A stretch of DNA of 64,000 nucleotides from Patescibacteria group bacterium (GTDB lineage: Bacteria > Patescibacteriota > Microgenomatia > 2-02-FULL-39-11). A program made the position numbers and the translations under genes. Where the stretch lies: positions 73,273 through 137,272 of the forward strand of contig JAMCUI010000004.1 of the NCBI GenBank assembly GCA_023379265.1, given 5' to 3'. The notes beneath the pieces were generated by a model. It searched no databases. It saw nothing but the letters and a program-made list of their open reading frames with translations, and was not told the DNA's origin. Positions 2,688-60,664 of the stretch are shown in pieces; the stretch's first letter is position 1, and every line of letters starts with the position of its first letter.

Positions 2688-3197
2688 TTATCCCACCTTT
2701 GTATCTTTTGATAATCCCTCAAATCCTTTTCCTCCAGACTTCCTTTTACCAAAAAGCATTCCCCGCGGCTGTTTCCCGGATGGGGCGGGCATGGATGACC
2801 GCTGTTTTTTTTGAGCTTCCACCTGTGCTGCTTTCTTTTTTTCTTCTTCCTGGACGGTCAGCTCATAAGGCCGCAACTCTTTCTCTTTTGGTGGCAATCT
2901 CATATGTGCTGGCAAACCGCCCGCCGCCTGCAGGAGTTTCCTTGCCTCCTCAATTTTCTTCTCATCCTCAGTCTTAAACTCCCCCTCTTTTTCTTTCAGC
3001 TTATCACCTGTCAGACTGGGATCTCCTAGATTTTTCAGGTAATCACCCATCGTGTTTTCTGATTGCTTCTGTTTTCCCAGTGCCTGTTCCAAAAGCGCCC
3101 CGGGACTGACAGTATCGGCTATCTGTTTTGCCGACTCTTTTACCGCCTCAAATCCTCCTCCAATGATTTTACCTATAATTTTCTTTGCCTTCCCCAT
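2688..3197 (-). CDS. hypothetical Lys/Glu-rich protein
   Basis: Intact 169-aa ORF, low complexity, no recognisable motif. Confidence 0.35.
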   Translation of the reverse strand: MGKAKKIIGKIIGGGFEAVKESAKQIADTVSPGALLEQALGKQKQSENTMGDYLKNLGDPSLTGDKLKEKEGEFKTEDEKKIEEARKLLQAAGGLPAHMRLPPKEKELRPYELTVQEEEKKKAAQVEAQKKQRSSMPAPSGKQPRGMLFGKRKSGGKGFEGLSKDTKVG

Positions 3198-3260
3198 AAT
3201 TTCTACATTCTACTTACTACCTACTACTTTCTAAATACTTCTAAGACTTCACGCTTTACG

Positions 3261-3563
3261 CTAAAAGAATCCCAATTTCACCCTTGCTTCTTTACTCATC
3301 TTTTCAGGTGTCCAAGGCGGGTCGAAAGTTAGCTCCACAGTGACATCCTTTACGCCTTTTACCTTGCTAAGCTCCATACGTACCGGGTCGGCTATAAGGT
3401 CAAAAAGAGGACAACCCATGGTAGTCAAAGTCATCACCACTTCCACATTTCCATTTTTATCGGCTTTGACATCATAAACCAAACCCAGATCCACAATTGA
3501 AATACCCAGCTCCGGGTCCGGTATATTTTTCAGTTTTTCCAGAAGCGATTTTTTGGATAACAT
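3261..3563 (-). CDS. DUF59/MIP18-family Fe-S cluster assembly protein (SufT-like)
   Basis: ~100 aa; conserved DPELGISIVDLGLVY ... MTLTTMGCP motif of DUF59. Confidence 0.7.
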   Translation of the reverse strand: MLSKKSLLEKLKNIPDPELGISIVDLGLVYDVKADKNGNVEVVMTLTTMGCPLFDLIADPVRMELSKVKGVKDVTVELTFDPPWTPEKMSKEARVKLGFF

Positions 3564-3577
3564 ATTATTTAGGGCTG

Positions 3578-3956
3578 ACTAATATTCCTGCCGGCCTTCA
3601 AGCGATCTGGACAAAGTTACTTCATCAGCATATTCCAAATCCCCTCCTACAGTACTAATATTCCTGCCGGCCTTCAAGCGATCTGGACAAAGTTACTTCA
3701 TCAGCATATTCCAAATCCCCTCCTACAGTACTAATATTCCTGCCGGCCTTCAAGCGATCTGGACAAAGTTACTTCATCAGCATATTCCAAATCCCCTCCT
3801 ACAGTACTAATATTCCTGCCGGCCTTCAAGCGATCTGGACAAAGTTACTTCATCAGCATATTCCAAATCCCCTCCTACAGTACTAATATTCCTGCCGGCC
3901 TTCAAGCGATCTGGACAAAGTTACTTCATCAGCATATTCCAAATCCCCTCCTACAG
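3578..3956. repeat. Tandem direct repeat, 76-bp unit x 5 (first copy slightly degenerate at its 5' base). Each unit is the 3' end of recR (codons GGDLEYADEVTLSRSLEGRQEY + TAG + 7 nt).
   Basis: Exact period of 76 measured between successive aatattcctgccggcc occurrences (3581, 3657, 3733, 3809, 3885). The unit reverse-complement translates to the recR C-terminus. Confidence 0.95.
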
Positions 3957-4506
3957 GCAGCCCGTGAGCCAATCTTGTCATTTTTAACTCATTTAGATTT
4001 GAGTTTTGAGCTTTCAGAATTGAGACTTCACGTCTGATATACATAGCCGTAGCCTCTCCTTCCACATTAGGGTTGGTTGCCAGTATCACTTCCTTTATTT
4101 TACCCGATTTTACCCGCCTCAGAAGCTCGGCTATCTTTATCTCATCAGGACCGATATTGTTTAGCGGGTTTATCGCTCCATGAAGCACATGATAGATACC
4201 CCTGTACTTTCCTGTGCGCTCAAGCGAAAGGATGTCTATGGGTTGTTCTACCACACAGACTATTGATTCATCCCTATCCAGGCTGGCACACACTACACAC
4301 GGATCACTCTCACCTATATTAAAACATTTGGAACAGTAGACGGTTTTATTTTTGAGATTTTTGAGGGAATCGGAAAATTCATCCAGTTCCTCCTGCGGCA
4401 CATGAAGAAGATAAAAAGTCAGCCGGCTGGCGGTTTTTGGACCGATACCGGGCAACCTTTCAAATGCTTCAATAAGTTTTTCAACAGATCTGGGAAGAAT
4501 TTTCAT
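3883..4506 (-). CDS. recR: recombination protein RecR
   Basis: HhH motif (LPGIGPKTASRL), C4 zinc finger (CSKCFN...CVVC), Toprim domain (VCVVEQPIDILSLE); ~200 aa. Confidence 0.9.
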   Translation of the reverse strand: MKILPRSVEKLIEAFERLPGIGPKTASRLTFYLLHVPQEELDEFSDSLKNLKNKTVYCSKCFNIGESDPCVVCASLDRDESIVCVVEQPIDILSLERTGKYRGIYHVLHGAINPLNNIGPDEIKIAELLRRVKSGKIKEVILATNPNVEGEATAMYIRREVSILKAQNSNLNELKMTRLAHGLPVGGDLEYADEVTLSRSLEGRQEY

Positions 4507-4510
4507 TCAC

Positions 4511-5491
4511 TCATTTTATCATCTTTTTTATACCCGAGGCTATTGTGGCTGCAATGGAGAAAACCTTCAGTTTAGGAAACTTGCGGTCAGGAGGAATTAT
4601 TATACTATCCGTTACCCAAACCGCGTCCAAAGGACTGTCCTGGAGTATCTTGTCAGCCCCGCCGACAAAATCAGCGTGCGTGGCTACAGCAATCACTTTT
4701 CTGGCGCCTTTTTCCTTCAAAAGATATGCCGCGTTCACCAGTGTCCCGCCTGTGACAATAACATCATCAACAATGATAGCCGTCTTGTCCTTCACTTCCC
4801 CTACTACTCGCATAGAGAGAATTGTATGCGGACGGTCCAGATCTCTTTTCTTTTCGATTAAAGCAAGCGGCAAATCCAGATGTTCGGCAAACTTCTGTGC
4901 GCGCTTTAGCGCTCCTGCGTCCGGTGTGATAACTACTACCTCATCTTTTATTTTCTCAACTTCCGTCTGGAATACCGACAATCCGGAAACGTGTGTTACC
5001 GGGATTTCAAAAAAACCAAGTATCGCCTCATTGTGAAGTTCGACAGTTACCAGTTTATCATAGCCTACTGATTCAATTAGCTTTGCCACCACATGGGCCG
5101 AGAGGCTTTCTCCCGTACGGTGTAGCCTATCCTGTCTGGCATATCCGTGATATGGCAAAACCGCAATCACTTTCCTTGCCTCTCCCCTTTTGACGGCATC
5201 CCCCAAAAGAAGAAACTCCATCAGGTTTTCGTCAACGGGATTGGAAAGCGACTGGATGATAAAAACATCTTTTCCCTCAACATCTTCCTCGATCCTGACG
5301 CGGCATTCAGAGTCTGCAAACCTGATAATCTCCACTTTCCCAAGTGGAAGTTTTGCTTCTCCGGCTATTTCTTTAGCCAGGGATAAATTGGAATTCCCCG
5401 AAAAAATTACGGATTGCATAAAGCCAAATACATACCTATTATCTTTTTTTTTATTAAAATATGCAACTACCATCTGTATTTCATTTGACAA
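4511..5491 (-). CDS. prs: ribose-phosphate pyrophosphokinase (PRPP synthetase)
   Basis: PRPP-binding loop DDVIVTGGTL and Prs-like N-terminal half; 326 aa. Confidence 0.85.
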   Translation of the reverse strand: MSNEIQMVVAYFNKKKDNRYVFGFMQSVIFSGNSNLSLAKEIAGEAKLPLGKVEIIRFADSECRVRIEEDVEGKDVFIIQSLSNPVDENLMEFLLLGDAVKRGEARKVIAVLPYHGYARQDRLHRTGESLSAHVVAKLIESVGYDKLVTVELHNEAILGFFEIPVTHVSGLSVFQTEVEKIKDEVVVITPDAGALKRAQKFAEHLDLPLALIEKKRDLDRPHTILSMRVVGEVKDKTAIIVDDVIVTGGTLVNAAYLLKEKGARKVIAVATHADFVGGADKILQDSPLDAVWVTDSIIIPPDRKFPKLKVFSIAATIASGIKKMIK

Positions 5492-9634: not shown

Positions 9635-9817
9635 CGTACTTCTAAAATTTATAATTCTACTTCACTAACAGACGTACCTCCCCTTTTTTGGCGAGGTACA
9701 ACAACAAACTAAATTTATAAATCTGACAGTCATAATCTGCTATATTAATAAACTTTTTTCTCCAAGTCAAATTCTTCTATAAATTTTGCCACTTTCTAAA
9801 CTTTAAGAACCTTACGG

Positions 9818-9867
9818 ACTTTATGAACTTTATGAACTTTATGAACTTTATGAACTTTATGAACTTT
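9818..9867. repeat. 9-bp microsatellite (actttatga) x ~5.5
   Basis: Perfect tandem copies immediately 3' of the stop of the 9873..10733 gene. Confidence 0.85.
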
Positions 9868-16716: not shown

Positions 16717-17598
16717 TTATTTACTCTTTGATTTCAACACTTCAATAATCTCCCTCAGCGTCAGTTTTGTTGCCTTTGTCTGGGGATTTTTCATAGAACC
16801 GTTCAAGACCATATTTTTGCCGGCATGCAAAAACCATGTAGCTTCCTTATCAATTTCCTTATATCTATTATAACAGTCAGTCAAATCCACTCTTGGGTCA
16901 GGAAGGGACTTGATACGCACATAACCTTTTTTGGGATCCTTGCGGACAGCGATTACATAACCGGATTTTTGCGCGATGCGTATTGTCTCATCATTTATGG
17001 TTTCGATACCTATCCCTTTTCCCCACTTGGATTGGAACTCTACTCCGTTTTCCTTTATTTCTCTTTCAGCCCAGACCTTATTTTGCATCGCTTTATAAAT
17101 GCCGTCAAGAGCCTCCATAGCATGACTGATAATCCGCAGATGGTCATCAGAATAAATCAGCTTCCACCCATCCATTATGCCAACCAGCCCGAAATCGTAA
17201 AAGTCGGCAGTGGGGTTGGGAAAATACACTTCCTTAAAGTGGTCTATAATGTTGACCACATCAACCAGTCTCTCCATAGCCTCATCGGGAAATTCTTTAT
17301 GAATCTTATCTTTTGGCCTTTGGCTTTTGGCCTTTGGCTTTAGAACTTGCGAAATGTATTCCATTGTGCGTTTTGCAGCACATGTATCCTCTCCAGTCTG
17401 ATGGTGATCTAGTATACCCATCCCGGTATCCACATGCAAAATATCAGGGTCACTATCAACGGGTTCGTTACCTAGAGTCTTTCCTGCCGGAACAAAAGCG
17501 ACATCCGCACTCTCCCATCCTGGCAAAAAGCGCTTCAGGAGCCAAACGGACGACACCGCATCCACATCTGGTGCCATATGGGTCACTATCGTTTTCAT
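16717..17598 (-). CDS. DHH-family phosphoesterase-like protein (NrnA-like N-terminal domain, atypical C-terminus)
   Basis: Motifs HMAPDVDAVSS, VDTG, ILDHHQ match DHH motifs I-III; no clear GGGH. Confidence 0.5.
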   Translation of the reverse strand: MKTIVTHMAPDVDAVSSVWLLKRFLPGWESADVAFVPAGKTLGNEPVDSDPDILHVDTGMGILDHHQTGEDTCAAKRTMEYISQVLKPKAKSQRPKDKIHKEFPDEAMERLVDVVNIIDHFKEVYFPNPTADFYDFGLVGIMDGWKLIYSDDHLRIISHAMEALDGIYKAMQNKVWAEREIKENGVEFQSKWGKGIGIETINDETIRIAQKSGYVIAVRKDPKKGYVRIKSLPDPRVDLTDCYNRYKEIDKEATWFLHAGKNMVLNGSMKNPQTKATKLTLREIIEVLKSKSK

Positions 17599-17672
17599 AT
17601 CTAAAATATCACAAACCTAACAAGAAACTTATTACAATCTGCTGGTGCCATATGGGTCACTATCGTTTTCAT
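17568..17672. repeat. 31-bp direct repeat (ctggtgccatatgggtcactatcgttttcat) at 17568-17598 and 17642-17672, duplicating the start codon and first 9 codons of the DHH gene
   Basis: Read directly; upstream copy opens a 25-codon decoy ORF (MMKTIVTHMAPADCNKFLVRFVIF*). Confidence 0.8.
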
Positions 17673-24332: not shown

Positions 24333-25031
24333 TTAAGACAGAATACTCCTTAGGATAATATTTTTCTCTCTGCCGTCTAATATGCACGTTTTAATTCCGC
24401 GCTCAATCAGGCTGTTTTTTACTGTTTCTTTTGCTTCTCCTCCTCCCACTCCAAACAATGAACCTTCCCATGAAGAAAGGATCAAAAGCCTGCTTTTGCC
24501 AAAAAGTTTTGCAATCTCTCCGGCCAGAAAATCGTTGCCCCCAAAACTGTTCAAGTCTAAAACATCATTTTCGTTTAATACCGGAACCACCCCGTTTTGC
24601 ATATATAGTCTTAATACTTTCCTTATATTCCCGCGCATAGCCGCATACTTAAAATCATATTTTGTCATCAATATCTGGGCAATCCTTACACCTCTCCTGC
24701 GCGCTAACTTGGCTAGAATCTGCATCATTTCCACCTGTCCGACTCCTGCGGCCGCCTGTTTACTCATCTTATCACTCTGTCCGACTCCTGCGGCCGCCTG
24801 TTTACTCATCTTATCACTCTCAACCTGCTTCTGAAAAAAGACTCTCATCCCGCAACCTACCGCTCCGGACAATACCAAAATTGGCGCAAACCCTTCTTGC
24901 CTCAGCTTGACCAGTTGGTCAACTATATGACTCAACCGTCTCCCGCAGAGCTTCCCTTTACCCTCAATAATTACCGAACTGCCGATTTTTACCACAATTA
25001 TTTTTCTTTCCATAAAAAAAGCCCTCTCCAC
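24333..25031 (-). CDS. proB: glutamate 5-kinase (short form, no PUA domain); contains in-frame 14-aa tandem duplication
   Basis: Amino-acid kinase N-terminus IVVKIGSSVI; duplicated SDKMSKQAAAGVGQ. Confidence 0.8.
   Translation of the reverse strand: MERAFFMERKIIVVKIGSSVIIEGKGKLCGRRLSHIVDQLVKLRQEGFAPILVLSGAVGCGMRVFFQKQVESDKMSKQAAAGVGQSDKMSKQAAAGVGQVEMMQILAKLARRRGVRIAQILMTKYDFKYAAMRGNIRKVLRLYMQNGVVPVLNENDVLDLNSFGGNDFLAGEIAKLFGKSRLLILSSWEGSLFGVGGGEAKETVKNSLIERGIKTCILDGREKNIILRSILS
24736..24819. repeat. 42-bp perfect tandem duplication inside proB
   Basis: ctgtccgactcctgcggccgcctgtttactcatcttatcact x 2. Confidence 0.9.
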
Positions 25032-29572: not shown

Positions 29573-32056
29573 ATGGCCGAAAACAAAGTTGTCCTTGAGC
29601 TTCGCACGCCAAAAACGGCTGAGGAAACACCAGGCTCTATGGAGCAGGTCTTTGCCGCGCTTTTTTCAGGCGGTCATATCCCCCACTGGAAAAGGCTCTG
29701 GATAAAGGTGCGCACTCTTTCTTTTGAAATCGCGAGCTTTAACCAGACCATCCATTTTTACTCGGTAGTACCGGAATCTTTCAGGACGTTTATCGAAAGC
29801 CAGCTGACCAGCCAATACCCCAAAATACTTATAACAAAAGTACCCGATTATATCGGCGAAATTACCAGGTCCCCGTTTCTTGCTGTAGGCAACCTGCAGC
29901 TGGCGCATGCTTTTTACTATCCCATCAAGACTTTTTCCGAGTTCAAAGAACTGGATCCTATGTCCTCAATCATCGGTGTCTTGTCCAAACTCTCACCTTT
30001 GCAAAAAGCCCTCATCCAGATAGTGATTGAGCCTCCGCACTTTAACTGGCAGGGAATGGTGACAAGGATGATTGAGCGCGGCATTCCTGACCCCACCCCA
30101 ACCGCTCCTGATAAAACCAAATCCTTCCCGCACGCGTCAATTATCGAGACCAAACTGAAAAATACCGGATACCGCACTTATATCAGGCTACTCGTAGGAG
30201 GAGAGACTGACAAGGAGGCCAAAAGTCTCATGTTCAACCTGGCCGGTTCCTTTGGCGCCTTTGCCCTGGGAGAAGGCAACCGGATAATTCTCAGGCGCCC
30301 ACGGCTGTTCTTTAAGAAAGTCATATTTAACCGCATCATAAAGCGCGAAAAAAGCCACTTTCCCCGTCACCAAATCTTTAATACCGCAGAACTGGCTACC
30401 ATCTTCCATCCGCCCACCATGCTTTTGGCAGGCATAAAAAATATCGCCTGGGGCAGATCTCTTGTCGGTGAGCCTCCGCAAAATCTGCCCGTTGCCCTGG
30501 GTGCCACAGAGGAACAAAAAAGCCAAATCAACTTCTTTGCCAAAGCAGAGTTTAAGAACTCCCTTACTACATTTGGTGTGAAGAAAGAAGATAGACGGAA
30601 ACACGTGTATGTCATCGGGAAAACGGGTACCGGGAAATCCACCATGATTGCCAACCTGGCTATAAATGACATGAGAAACCGCGAGGGCCTGGCGGTTGTC
30701 GACCCCCACGGCGATCTGTCTGAAATACTCCTTCACTATGTTCCCTCATACAGAATAAACGATGTAGTTTATCTGGAACCGTTTAATCAAGACCGTCCCT
30801 TCTGGATAAATCCGCTGGAAGTCAAAAATCCGGTCCACCGAGAACTGGTTGCATCCGGCATCGTCTCTATTTTCTCCAAATTATACGCTTACTCATGGGG
30901 ACCGAGGCTGGAGTATATTCTGAGAAATGTCATCCTCACGCTTCTGGAATATCCAAATGCCACCCTCACTATGGCCCTGGACCTTCTGGCCGACCAGAAC
31001 TTCCGACAGGGAGTCCTACTAAAGGTCCAGGATAGAGTACTCCAAAACTTCTGGCATAACGAATTTGACAAGATGCACCCCAGGCTAAAAAGCGAAGCAA
31101 TTGCGCCTATCCAAAACAAAGTCGGCCAGTTTGTCCAGTCCCCGACTATCAGACAGATCATAGGCCATTCCTCCTCAACTATTGATCTTGAAGACATCAT
31201 GAACCAGGGAAAAATACTGATACTAAATCTCGCCCAGGGGAAACTCGGCGAGGACAATGCTGCGCTTCTGGGGGCAATGTTTATCACCAAGATGCAGCTT
31301 GCGGCCATGAACCGGGTAAACATGCCTGAAGCCGAAAGGAAGGATTTTTACCTTTACGTGGACGAGTTCCAGAATTTTGCTACTTCATCTTTTATAAAAA
31401 TACTTTCCGAAGCCAGAAAATACAGACTGGACCTTATCCTGGCCAACCAGTATATAGGCCAGCTTGAAGAGACAGTGCAAAAAGCCATTTTCGGCAATGC
31501 CGGCACACTCATTTCCTTTGTTATTGGAGCCCAGGATGCCGCGGCAATAAGTAAGGAATTCGGCCAGTGGTATAAAGAGGAAGATTTAGTTAACTTAGGT
31601 TCATACCAGATAGTCATTAAACTTGCTATCGACAACCTCACTTCACTTCCCTTCCATGCCGTCACACTCCCCTTACCCAAAAGTGTCAATCAAAATAGAG
31701 ATAAGGTAGTCAGATTGTCGCTTGAAAGATACACGAAAAACGCGGATCCAACGCTTAGCGCGCTTAGGCAAACCCCTGCTTCCGCGGTACTTCCCAAACC
31801 GCAAACAGCCAGTTTTACCCAGACTCCTTCCCAACAAGCTCCTCCTGTCAAAAATACTCCAGAGACAAGTACTTCCACTAGTCTTCCCCAAGAGACAACG
31901 AGTACTTCCGCCAAGATATCTCGTCTTCCCCATCCGCAAACCAAAAAACAGCCAAAACCGGCCAAAGATACACCAAACACTTCACAGCCTGTTAATTCCA
32001 ATCCTACTAACCAATCCAACCAAACCAGCCAGACAAACACAAACCGTTCACAATAA
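29573..32056 (+). CDS. P-loop ATPase of the FtsK/HerA/TraD-VirD4 superfamily (type IV coupling-protein-like) with ~140-aa Pro/Thr/Gln-rich C-terminal tail
   Basis: Walker A VIGKTGTGKST, VVDPHGDL (TraG/VirD4-type motif), Walker B FYLYVDEFQNF; no N-terminal TM helices; GC content visibly above host genes. Confidence 0.5.
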   Translation: MAENKVVLELRTPKTAEETPGSMEQVFAALFSGGHIPHWKRLWIKVRTLSFEIASFNQTIHFYSVVPESFRTFIESQLTSQYPKILITKVPDYIGEITRSPFLAVGNLQLAHAFYYPIKTFSEFKELDPMSSIIGVLSKLSPLQKALIQIVIEPPHFNWQGMVTRMIERGIPDPTPTAPDKTKSFPHASIIETKLKNTGYRTYIRLLVGGETDKEAKSLMFNLAGSFGAFALGEGNRIILRRPRLFFKKVIFNRIIKREKSHFPRHQIFNTAELATIFHPPTMLLAGIKNIAWGRSLVGEPPQNLPVALGATEEQKSQINFFAKAEFKNSLTTFGVKKEDRRKHVYVIGKTGTGKSTMIANLAINDMRNREGLAVVDPHGDLSEILLHYVPSYRINDVVYLEPFNQDRPFWINPLEVKNPVHRELVASGIVSIFSKLYAYSWGPRLEYILRNVILTLLEYPNATLTMALDLLADQNFRQGVLLKVQDRVLQNFWHNEFDKMHPRLKSEAIAPIQNKVGQFVQSPTIRQIIGHSSSTIDLEDIMNQGKILILNLAQGKLGEDNAALLGAMFITKMQLAAMNRVNMPEAERKDFYLYVDEFQNFATSSFIKILSEARKYRLDLILANQYIGQLEETVQKAIFGNAGTLISFVIGAQDAAAISKEFGQWYKEEDLVNLGSYQIVIKLAIDNLTSLPFHAVTLPLPKSVNQNRDKVVRLSLERYTKNADPTLSALRQTPASAVLPKPQTASFTQTPSQQAPPVKNTPETSTSTSLPQETTSTSAKISRLPHPQTKKQPKPAKDTPNTSQPVNSNPTNQSNQTSQTNTNRSQ

Positions 32057-32542: not shown

Positions 32543-32680
32543 TCGCGTCACGTTTCAGAAAAGCTTATTATTGTAGTATAAAATACAAAATATGCAGACA
32601 TCCGGAAAAATAAAATTTAACTTCCTGTTTTCCATAAAAAGAATTTTTGTCGTTCTTTTTATCTAAGTCAGGGAGTTTTT

Positions 32681-32775
32681 TGTGGCAAAACTAAACTCCC
32701 AAACTGAAGAAAAAGGGAGTTTTTTGTGGCAAAACTAAACTCCCAAACTGAAGAAAAAGGGAGTTTTTTGTGAGA
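32681..32775. repeat. Tandem repeat, ~44-bp unit x ~2.5; each unit contains a hairpin gggagtttt...aaactccc
   Basis: gggagttttttgtggcaaaactaaactcccaaactgaagaaaaa repeated without spacers. Confidence 0.85.
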
Positions 32776-47804: not shown

Positions 47805-47891
47805 TCAAGTTTGCCATCAGTAGTTACGCACTCTGTATCTTATATCCTGTTTCACGTAACTCAGGTTTGCAACTGAGTTACTCAGTATATA

Positions 47892-47965
47892 ACCATCTAT
47901 GCTTCGGCTACGTCTCAGCACTTATCTGCTTTTTTGGCTCTACGAGCTTCAAACCAGAGTAAGAT
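47892..47965. repeat. Left copy of ~74-bp inverted repeat (partner at 59634-59706, 3 mismatches); overlaps the start codon and first ~22 codons of the 47899 gene
   Basis: Reverse complement of 47892-47965 aligns with 59634-59706. Confidence 0.85.
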
Positions 47966-48546
47966 GGGTATATAATAATCCCGACATGCCGGGCAAAGAA
48001 CATTTTTCTTTCAGGAATGATTTCCAACTGGGCTCACCTGCAGATTTTCAAGTGAGACAAACGGGCGACAGAATCCTCAGGGAACATCACCTGGATCTGA
48101 CGGTGACGGATCTGGACGTGATGCTTTCGCTTACTTCCCTGCCGCGCAACAACCGCACATTTGAACACATCAGGGATGACTGCATCACTCTCAATCCCCC
48201 TTCAGCCCGTCCCAACGCGCAACTCACCAGACATCCGGAATATACAGACTATGCCAATCGGGCTCTGGCTCTTACACTAAAAAGGATGGAACGGCAAGAT
48301 AGGATCAGACGGAGGGCAACAAACAGTCATGATGGAGAACTTTATGACATCACCTCAAGAGGACGGGAACAGCTCAGGAAAGCAAAAAGAGTCTTTTCAG
48401 CACTTCCCGCGCCAGAGTCTAAAAGATATGGAGATACTGGCTCAATCACGGGCATCATGCAAATATTCCCCGACAGTATCATCTCCTTTATCAAAAGCCT
48501 CAAAAGGCACAAAAGGAAATTTTCCCGTAGATTAAGTCAGAGATAG
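47899..48546 (+). CDS. hypothetical protein
   Basis: 215-aa ORF; N-terminus encoded by the inverted repeat. Confidence 0.4.
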   Translation: MLRLRLSTYLLFWLYELQTRVRWVYNNPDMPGKEHFSFRNDFQLGSPADFQVRQTGDRILREHHLDLTVTDLDVMLSLTSLPRNNRTFEHIRDDCITLNPPSARPNAQLTRHPEYTDYANRALALTLKRMERQDRIRRRATNSHDGELYDITSRGREQLRKAKRVFSALPAPESKRYGDTGSITGIMQIFPDSIISFIKSLKRHKRKFSRRLSQR

Positions 48547-59569: not shown

Positions 59570-59633
59570 CCTTCATCACCTCCTATCTTCATTGAGTATA
59601 AACACAATATATGACTTATCAATAACATATACA

Positions 59634-59706
59634 CATCTTATTCTGGTTCGAAGCTTGTAGAGCCAAAAAAGCAGATAAGTGCTGAGACGTAGCCGAAGCA
59701 TAGATG
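59634..59706. repeat. Right copy of ~74-bp inverted repeat (partner 47892-47965)
   Basis: See left copy. Confidence 0.85.
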
Positions 59707-59710
59707 GGTA

Positions 59711-60523
59711 TTAACTTCTGAAATACTCGAGAGTCAAGCATTTTACCGAGCCGCCACCCTTAAAATACTCCTCCATTTGGGTTTCAAATATTTCATAGCC
59801 TACTTTCAAAAGTTCGCTTTTGACATCTTTACCTACTCCGCGTCCGGTTATCACGGTATGGTCCCGGGAGAGAATATTGCAACACATAAACGGCATATCT
59901 GCTTTTTGGGCCAAAATGACTTTCTTGAAATTCTTTTTTATCTTTTCTACATCCTCGTTGCTGAAAGATGAAGGATTTATGACTACTTTGCCGTCTCCCA
60001 AAGGCGCAAAACAGGTATCCAGGTGGTAATAATACGGATCATTGACTTCAAAACTGATAACTTTCTCGCCTACTATCTTTTCTATATACTTCAGAGCTTC
60101 TTTTGATGTCCTCTTGCCCCAACCGCAAAAGAATTTTCCATCCCGGTAAAACATATCCCCCTGTCCTTCAAAATATATGCCCTCAGGTATCTTTTTTATC
60201 TTAAATCCCTTTTCCTTAAAATATTTTTCTGCCCAGTCTGCTTCCTTTCTCCTTTGCTGAAATCGGAAGTTTGACTTTATAAAAATATCATCTATGACAA
60301 AACCGTGGTTGGCGGCATAGACCATGTCGGGCAATCCGGGCTGCGCGTCAATCTCTTGCACCTCAAGATCCAGCTTCCTGTAAATATCTTTAAGATTTTT
60401 ATATTCCGATTTGACTTTTTGTTGATCAACCTTATTTTTGATATCCATCCACGGATTTATCTCATACTCTATTTGGTAATAGTCAGGCGGACACAAAAGG
60501 ACGGTCTTTATATCTTTTGACAT
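59711..60523 (-). CDS. amidinotransferase-superfamily enzyme (DDAH / arginine-deiminase / agmatine-deiminase-like)
   Basis: ~270 aa with C-terminal GGGSVKCLT catalytic-Cys-like motif. Confidence 0.5.
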   Translation of the reverse strand: MSKDIKTVLLCPPDYYQIEYEINPWMDIKNKVDQQKVKSEYKNLKDIYRKLDLEVQEIDAQPGLPDMVYAANHGFVIDDIFIKSNFRFQQRRKEADWAEKYFKEKGFKIKKIPEGIYFEGQGDMFYRDGKFFCGWGKRTSKEALKYIEKIVGEKVISFEVNDPYYYHLDTCFAPLGDGKVVINPSSFSNEDVEKIKKNFKKVILAQKADMPFMCCNILSRDHTVITGRGVGKDVKSELLKVGYEIFETQMEEYFKGGGSVKCLTLEYFRS

Positions 60524-60664
60524 AAATTGTGAGAAATATTACAAAGAATTAGTATGAGTGTATCGTCTGAGAGCAAAAATTGTCAATAAGGAAACCCGCT
60601 GGAGGCATCCGGCGGGTCATAAAGATTCCGCCATTTCCCTAAATACTCTCACAATTATCAGGCT

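Follow-up and report, generated by a model that had tools for sequence, protein, structure and literature searches.

Tandem re-copying of a gene terminus raises the question whether the copies are part of the chromosome or a product of assembly and, if they exist, whether they serve the neighbouring genes or are simply tolerated. Such a locus is found in a Patescibacteria group bacterium, in which the end of recR, stop codon included, stands several times head-to-tail in front of a DUF59 gene. The DNA analysed here is a 64-kb stretch of this genome (64,000 nt, hereafter the window), and positions refer to this window if not stated otherwise. A preliminary description, made from the sequence alone, had considered replication slippage, a hypervariable locus and an assembly artefact, and had suggested that the copies might supply additional terminators or promoters.

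Structure of the recR-tail array

The array at 3578-3956 is the standout tandem repeat of the window. TRF reports a period of 76, 5.0 copies, 100% matches and a score of 758, and a direct scan delimits a maximal periodic stretch of 379 nt (4x76+75, or 4.99 copies). Both methods agree with the earlier view that the recR terminus is re-copied in tandem, with full identity of the copies. The array shows 303 consecutive self-matches at offset 76. This cannot be chance. In 455 kb of control loci, which are recR loci of 80 other bacteria, a single exact short-range repeat reaches a length of 25 nt or more. The unit is found nowhere else in the 64-kb window, and the periodicity ends within one base at each end of the array.

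Read on the recR coding strand, which is the minus strand in window coordinates (Table 1), the copied native segment measures 75 nt and consists of CT of a Pro codon, 23 sense codons (VGGDLEYADEVTLSRSLEGRQEY), the TAG stop and one T. The preliminary description had counted 22 codons, one too few. Its period of 76 bp is exact, but the make-up behind it was missed: the period is the sum of 75 native nucleotides and one non-native base per junction. This base is an A in recR sense at all four junctions, i.e. a T on the plus strand at the junction positions listed in Table 1. It is unlike the native upstream base (C) and the native downstream base (C); the two native boundaries of the unit thus have a single C in common where the junctions carry A. 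The junction sequence is GGAATATTAGTACTGTAGGAGG. An internal junction reads …TATTAGTACTGTAGG… and the exit from the array …TATTAGTCAGCCC…, and at the level of 31-mers the internal junction is …GGCAGGAATATTAGTACTGTAGGAGGGGATT…, the exit …GGCAGGAATATTAGTCAGCCCTAAATAAT… and the entry …CACGGGCTGCCTGTAGGAGG…. In composition the unit has an A fraction of 0.28 and a GC fraction of 0.45.

The recR TAG is present in every unit, as had been noted, and only the first copy can belong to recR, in line with the proposal that the contiguous copy alone is translated. The additional copies occupy 3578-3881 and do lie between recR and DUF59. They move the DUF59 ATG away from the recR stop, from 15 nt with one copy to 91 nt with two and 319 nt with five. 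The encoded RecR has the full Pfam architecture (RecR_HhH, RecR_ZnF, Toprim_4, RecR_C), and the 24-residue RecR_C model, matched over positions 1-24 of 24 at residues 182-205, is essentially the duplicated piece. The neighbours of the array are prs, recR, DUF59, a hypothetical gene and cysS. The native unit stands between the arms of a 6-nt inverted repeat, GGGCTG…CAGCCC, which may be chance.

Table 1. Features of the recR-DUF59 locus, in window coordinates.
Feature	Position	Strand	Remarks
recR, 207 aa, complete	3883..4506	-	ORF list and Pfam; last 23 codons and TAG are repeat copy 1
Copy 1 (native 75 nt: CT of Pro codon, 23 codons, TAG, T)	3882..3956	-	Adjoins recR body; right flank GCAGCCC runs on into recR
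Copy 2 (75 nt) and junction base at 3881	3806..3881	-	100% identical
Copy 3 and junction base at 3805	3730..3805	-	100% identical
Copy 4 and junction base at 3729	3654..3729	-	Reading phase of copy 1 (228 nt = 76 codons downstream), yet beyond recR stop
Copy 5 and junction base at 3653	3578..3653	-	Tail gives native sequence directly upstream of DUF59
Native 14-nt spacer CAGCCCTAAATAAT (gene sense), last copy to DUF59 ATG	3564..3577	-	Identical exit sequence in contigs L001 (GCA_023487465.1) and L002 (Logan, SRR10278331)
DUF59/FeS_assembly_P gene, 100 aa, intact	3261..3563	-	Pfam PF01883, E=3.6e-20; downstream of array
GGGCTG, arm 1 of 6-nt inverted repeat bracketing native recR unit	3572..3577	.	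Read from sequence
CAGCCC, arm 2 of 6-nt inverted repeat bracketing native recR unit	3958..3963	.	Read from sequence

At the species level, the closest relatives are MAGs of Candidatus Gottesmanbacteria and of other Microgenomates/Patescibacteria, with RecR identities of at most 76%. All ten relatives inspected downstream of recR have one recR terminus with the same end residue, and the RecR C-terminus of the window aligns with theirs end-to-end. In two relatives (L006 and L007) the DUF59 ATG lies 2 nt past the recR stop. Judged from this comparison, the array is a recent, lineage-specific insertion into an ancestrally tight junction, at which recR and DUF59 were probably translationally coupled.

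The duplication and its copy number in independent assemblies

Several properties of the array could point to a pure assembly artefact, with a single recR terminus and no duplication in the cell: the copies do not differ in a single base, the MAG was built from short reads, and the period of 76 equals 77-1 and thereby resembles a common k-mer size. Logan contigs allow an independent view, because they stem from another assembler that was run with k=31 directly on the SRA runs, and break k-1 = 30 nt from any 30-mer with two continuations. Contigs from SRR10267473 (L087) and SRR10252151 (L088) have their first base at window 3927, which places the break exactly 30 nt inside the array on its recR side; a contig from SRR10278331 (L002) begins exactly 30 nt ahead of the point where the last copy gives way to the DUF59 side. 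Breaks at exactly this distance mean that the reads of three runs hold both the exit and the internal junction. The same break signature recurs at an independent 42-nt repeat. None of the Logan contigs spans recR completely, although the neighbouring 643-aa gene is present on such contigs in at least three runs, and none joins recR to DUF59.

Other assemblies of the same population were recovered by exact-protein look-ups. A second MAG, GCA_023487465.1 (contig JAMDBJ010000009.1, L001), has the identical junction, with 2 copies. It is 99.97% identical to the window across the recR locus and about 99.9% overall, differing by about 46 substitutions and five indels in about 39 kb, and three of these indels are changes in repeat number. 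Taken together, the k=31 breaks in three runs, the shared junction and the lack of a Logan link between recR and DUF59 leave a single, unduplicated terminus with hardly any credibility. As far as contigs of separate assemblers can tell, the duplication is present in the DNA, and a pure assembler artefact is excluded for practical purposes. The resemblance of the period to k-1 (k=77) is probably coincidental, since no assembler with k=77 had a part in the Logan evidence.

The number of copies is a different matter: from the contigs, at least two recR-tail copies appear secure and five plausible. The 379-nt array is probably longer than one short read, so that the count of five in the window may rest on coverage or read-pair inference. 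It is quite possible, though we would not call it probable, that the duplication is real with a true state of about two copies and that five reflects over-expansion of a de Bruijn loop by the assembler. The length of the array beyond the span of a single read is in line with this, as are the two copies with identical junction in GCA_023487465.1. A similar discrepancy is seen at a 44-nt repeat, of which the window has 2.3 units and the Logan contig of a 100%-identical run 1.3. The window thus carries one copy more than the Logan assembly of its best-matching run, and for at least one of the assemblers the repeat count in these data must be wrong. However, two copies are also exactly the minimal path through the loop at k of about 77-141, and the count in GCA_023487465.1 may itself be a collapse. 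Five is minimal for no usual k, which would suggest that coverage or pair evidence entered the count. The difference of five versus two could hence be technical, not biological. With respect to the artefact considered in the preliminary description, the single-copy version fails at the Logan breaks in SRR10278331, SRR10267473 and SRR10252151, while the five-copy count could still have been set by an assembler. The comparison with related strains that it had proposed yields the two-copy junction in GCA_023487465.1 and one tail in farther relatives, with the reservation that either count, five or two, may be assembler-set.

Search for signals in the repeat unit

The idea that the array multiplies terminator or promoter signals of the recR end did not hold. 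A scan of 3100-4600 found neither promoter-like (sigma-70, -35/-10) nor intrinsic-terminator-like sites in 3578-3956 on either strand, and an array of terminators or promoters was therefore rejected. No such signal is to be expected at the recR end, given that the gap between recR and DUF59 is only 2 nt in relatives. The fold of the array RNA (z = -1.8) and of the unit DNA (z = 0.1 and 1.5 for the two strands) is like that of shuffled sequences. Rfam searches came back empty, both at E<=1 for 3400-4100 and at gathering score for all 64 kb, and a tRNA scan together with Rfam reveals no tRNA or tmRNA gene in the window. Thus, the 76-nt unit is neither tRNA-like nor a known RNA, and a known structured RNA was discarded as an explanation.

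A functional regulatory array, in which promoters, terminators, structured RNA or small ORFs tune DUF59 and the downstream operon and the copy number acts as a phase-variation dial, would fit the shift in recR-DUF59 spacing from 15 to 319 nt and a copy number that seems variable. In addition, each unit contains AGGAGG followed by TTG/ATG. These AGGAGG motifs, however, are the Gly-Gly codons of RecR, and even loosely defined SD-like leaders precede only about 9 of the 39 genes of the window; a mini-ORF driven by AGGAGG in each unit was dropped, as most genes of the window lack such leaders. The missing sites, the unremarkable folds and an Rfam search that is empty even at E<=1 also speak against regulation, and so do the absence of the array from relatives and the unrelated sequence of the sibling arrays in this population. 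We therefore regard a regulatory function as very improbable.

Comparison with known repeat systems

Tandem repeats with units of tens of bp are known from the MIRU-VNTR loci of Mycobacterium tuberculosis, which lie in intergenic gaps within operons and vary between strains. MIRUs are a family of related units that lie dispersed over about 40 loci. The recR array resembles bacterial VNTRs in its head-to-tail units within the range of about 10-100 bp and in its position in a short gap between co-directional operon genes. Regarding the variable number of copies that defines VNTRs, there are 5 here and 2 in the near-identical GCA_023487465.1, where either count is possibly assembler-set, and slippage or unequal recombination is presumed as the cause. 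In contrast to MIRUs, each array described here derives from its own local sequence, and the recR unit occurs only in its own array within 64 kb. A further difference is that the recR unit is a coding terminus with its stop and that all copies are perfect, i.e. very young. The recR array joins the known class of bacterial minisatellites or VNTRs; it is known in kind, and the locus itself is new.

Tandem duplications of a few to about 100 bp also arise during lagging-strand synthesis in rad27/FEN1 or polA 5'-nuclease mutants, where they are flanked by short direct repeats and have no filler. A duplication of this type would suit a reduced-genome organism with limited repair, but the filler observed here differs. 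Two further classes of arrays were considered and set aside. A CRISPR array does not fit a constant single base between copies, and the Pfam annotations within about 3 kb of recR contain no cas-like gene. For a diversity-generating retroelement, the copies are 100% identical, and no RT domain was found in the neighbours or in 20 scanned proteins. A literature search on perfect tandem repeats in CPR, and on the run and assembly accessions, returned no report.

Further repeats in the same population

The window contains four exact short-range repeats of 25 nt or longer, as compared to one in the 455 kb of control loci, an enrichment of about 28-fold. In GCA_023487465.1, the tail of DUF59 forms an additional perfect array (L001 3965-4168, period 75 x 2.7), whose unit consists of the last 54 nt of the gene (17 codons and TAG; window 3261-3314) and a 21-nt filler (TTGAGTAATATGAATTCATTC). 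A Logan contig of SRR10267473 starts exactly 30 nt before the end of this repeat; the SRR10278331 contig and the window pass through a single copy. On the basis of these contigs, the DUF59-tail array is a read-supported presence/absence polymorphism between runs. The 303-nt DUF59 gene of GCA_023487465.1 thereby has arrays of about 75 nt on both sides.

At 17568-17672 (minus strand), a 293-aa gene has its first 31 nt, counted from the ATG, repeated 74 nt upstream, with 43 nt of unique filler between the copies. The repeat creates a mini-ORF of 23 codons, and GCA_023487465.1 has a SNP at 17664 in the upstream copy. Comparison of the filler with the preceding 43 nt showed that it is not a diverged copy of these. 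A perfect in-frame duplication of 42 nt (SDKMSKQAAAGVGQ x2) is located at 24735-24820 (minus strand) in an AA_kinase gene (24333-25031). Logan contig L004 breaks 30 nt inside this duplication, and GCA_023487465.1 carries a SNP at 24750 in one of the copies. The repeat at 32670-32772 has a 44-nt unit in 2.3 copies, composed of 15 nt (AGGGAGTTTTTTGTG) and a 29-nt filler; no convincing ORF covers it and it is apparently intergenic. It is reduced to 1.3 copies in the SRR10278331 Logan contig, which is otherwise 100% identical to the window. The contig of GCA_023487465.1 ends near window position 32600, as calculated by coordinate arithmetic from L003 without alignment, and the Logan contig ends at 32825. 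An imperfect 9-nt VNTR, (ACTTTATGA)n, is found at 9791-9867 in a 265-nt intergenic gap; GCA_023487465.1 and SRR10267473 lack three of its units (27 nt, 9818-9844).

The sibling units are mutually unrelated, with pairwise similarity at background, except for one 12-mer that two of them have in common. This 12-mer, AAGATGAGTAAA (KMSK in frame), occurs in the window at 3302, 24770 and 24812 (minus strand), i.e. only in the DUF59 tail and in both 42-nt copies, and every recR unit contains a near-match to it with one indel (GATGAAGTAA). The analytic chance of such a common 12-mer is about 0.3-1%, for a motif found post hoc; it may be a trigger motif or a coincidence. The fillers of 21, 43 and 29 nt have no other copy in the window and all fetched loci, and neither the end of the recR unit nor the 21-nt filler had a match in JGI metagenome contigs. 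The repeats are positioned at two 3' ends, at one 5' end, at one apparently intergenic site and, in one case, in frame within a gene.

Duplicated gene 3' ends with their stop are classically left by integrases directed at gene termini, and the locus is like an attL/attR pair in that the terminus including the stop is duplicated and the gene remains intact. A scar of site-specific integration, left by a mobile element that inserts at the 3' end of recR and brings its own copy of that end, is nevertheless extremely improbable. A single nucleotide, and no element, separates the recR copies, five of them stand head-to-tail, and no integrase is adjacent. The filler of the DUF59 array, of just 21 nt, has no other copy in the searched sequence, and no element lies between such copies in the recR loci of 10 relatives or in 80 repeat-screened loci.

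Elsewhere in the window, a compositionally distinct block extends from about 29500 to 52000, with a GC content of up to 0.54 compared to about 0.42 elsewhere. It opens with a coupling ATPase similar to VirD4/TraG/TrwB (29573-32056), followed by many proteins without Pfam match, several of which are preceded by SD-like leaders, in contrast to the remainder of the window. Diverged direct-repeat families lie at 34.2-39.6 kb, and the block as a whole may represent a secretion/uptake island or a mobile element that has integrated. A 90-nt inverted repeat with 92% complementarity has its arms at 47884-47973 and 59627-59716, 11.6 kb apart; in three runs, Logan contigs terminate within the arm at 59.6 kb. 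At 60599-60655, an intergenic segment of 57 nt contains a hairpin (ACCCGC…GCGGGT) with TTTCC behind it. The window and SRR10278331 have this segment, which is cleanly missing in GCA_023487465.1, SRR10267473, SRR10244963 and SRR10252151. This indel was checked as a candidate for a further repeat and is not one.

Origin of the array

We consider it probable that the recR array is a young, locally derived minisatellite (VNTR) without function that arose by tandem duplication and slippage, and whose copy number is uncertain. A segment of 75-76 nt that begins within recR and ends one base beyond its stop would have been duplicated in tandem in an ancestor of this Gottesmanbacteria-like Patescibacteria population. 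Once two perfect 75-nt copies existed, slippage or unequal recombination could have grown and shrunk the array, re-copying the junction base each time. Such a history would account for the identity of the copies, for one and the same base at every junction and in the second MAG, and for fast gain and loss. The replication-slippage or hypervariable locus of the preliminary description thereby stays the best reading, with the two-copy junction in the second MAG and the variation of neighbouring repeats between samples in its favour.

It seems plausible that the array is tolerated because the first copy completes recR and the last restores the native sequence in front of DUF59, leaving the spacing as the only change. 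The position at a gene end would then be an effect of survivorship and not of design: a duplication whose length is not a multiple of 3 destroys a gene that encloses it, so that survivors span a gene boundary, lie between genes or stay in frame, and the repeats of this population occupy just these kinds of position. Intergenic gaps in the window range from a few to about 100 nt. Most likely, the array has no function. At most, it weakens the translational coupling of DUF59 to recR, and it is likely neutral to mildly deleterious.

Two observations do not follow from simple slippage. The non-native filler, 1 nt here and 21 nt elsewhere, is not what simple slippage between microhomologies would yield, and a purely random process explains neither the clustering of the periods nor the 12-mer common to two unrelated units. 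The periods fall at 74, 75 and 76 and at 42 and 44, while the split into copied part and filler varies from 75+1 (recR) and 54+21 (DUF59 tail) to 31+43 (17568 locus) and 15+29 (44-nt unit). An alternative to generic slippage is therefore an active lineage-specific process of repeat formation, similar to that of Borgs, which would use about 75 nt and about 43 nt as a length ruler and might depend on a sequence trigger. Borg repeats are described as perfect, recent and independent at many loci and as variable between close relatives; they sometimes begin inside the end of an ORF, and cause assembly errors that need read-level curation (Schoelmerich et al., PLoS Biol 2023, PMC9879509). The same study describes Borg units as enriched in A, with flanking partial repeats, and gives examples of 18-21 nt (PMC9879509). 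The four perfect short-range repeats of the window and the fifth in GCA_023487465.1 are similar to Borg repeats in being perfect and of recent, independent origin at several loci; their sequences are unrelated and they are missing from relatives. They differ from Borg repeats in that they lie on a bacterial chromosome and not on an archaeal element, at far lower density and with units longer than these examples of 18-21 nt. The recR unit, moreover, is without A enrichment (28%) or flanking partial repeats as these are described there, and its junctions carry filler bases.

Apart from the clustered periods, a length ruler would be in line with the two arrays flanking a single 303-nt gene, with the confinement of the 12-mer, within the window, to duplication-prone units and its near-match in recR, and with the roughly 28-fold excess of perfect repeats over the controls. 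Substitutions between the populations are also enriched in repeat copies, with 2 of the 15 in a 20.9-kb stretch falling inside them. On the other side, the patterns are all post hoc and stem from five loci. Another 14 kb or so past the window edges, checked for the ruler, contained no further repeats, so that it stays at five loci; the window encodes no candidate enzyme; and the units are neither A-rich nor accompanied by partial repeats of the Borg type. Such a ruler is thus an unlikely, though not negligible, alternative to generic slippage. Slightly less likely still is the more specific version, in which a process of this lineage, perhaps driven by an enzyme, makes perfect local duplications of about 75 or about 43 nt (about 7 or 4 helical turns) that would be locally clustered, with non-templated filler and possibly a GATGA(A)GTAA-like start. 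If true, this process would be the chromosomal bacterial counterpart of the mechanism that forms Borg repeats.

Implications

Whether slippage or a dedicated process formed the recR array, assemblies of MAGs from the same population disagree at this array and at 3261-3314, 9791-9867 and 32670-32772. Copy numbers at such repeats in deposited genomes are hence untrustworthy without read-level checks, and gene callers may mishandle an apparently intergenic gap of 319 nt. Populations with about 99.9% identity differ in at least three of the repeats, namely the 44-nt unit, the 9-nt VNTR and the array of the DUF59 tail, to which the recR array may have to be added. With three or more repeat loci differing at this level of identity, gain and loss of repeats emerges as a major and fast part of the micro-diversity of a bacterium with a reduced genome, and the variable loci could act as strain markers. 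If the clustering of lengths and the motif hold genome-wide, they would point to a specific defect or activity of replication or repair in Patescibacteria.
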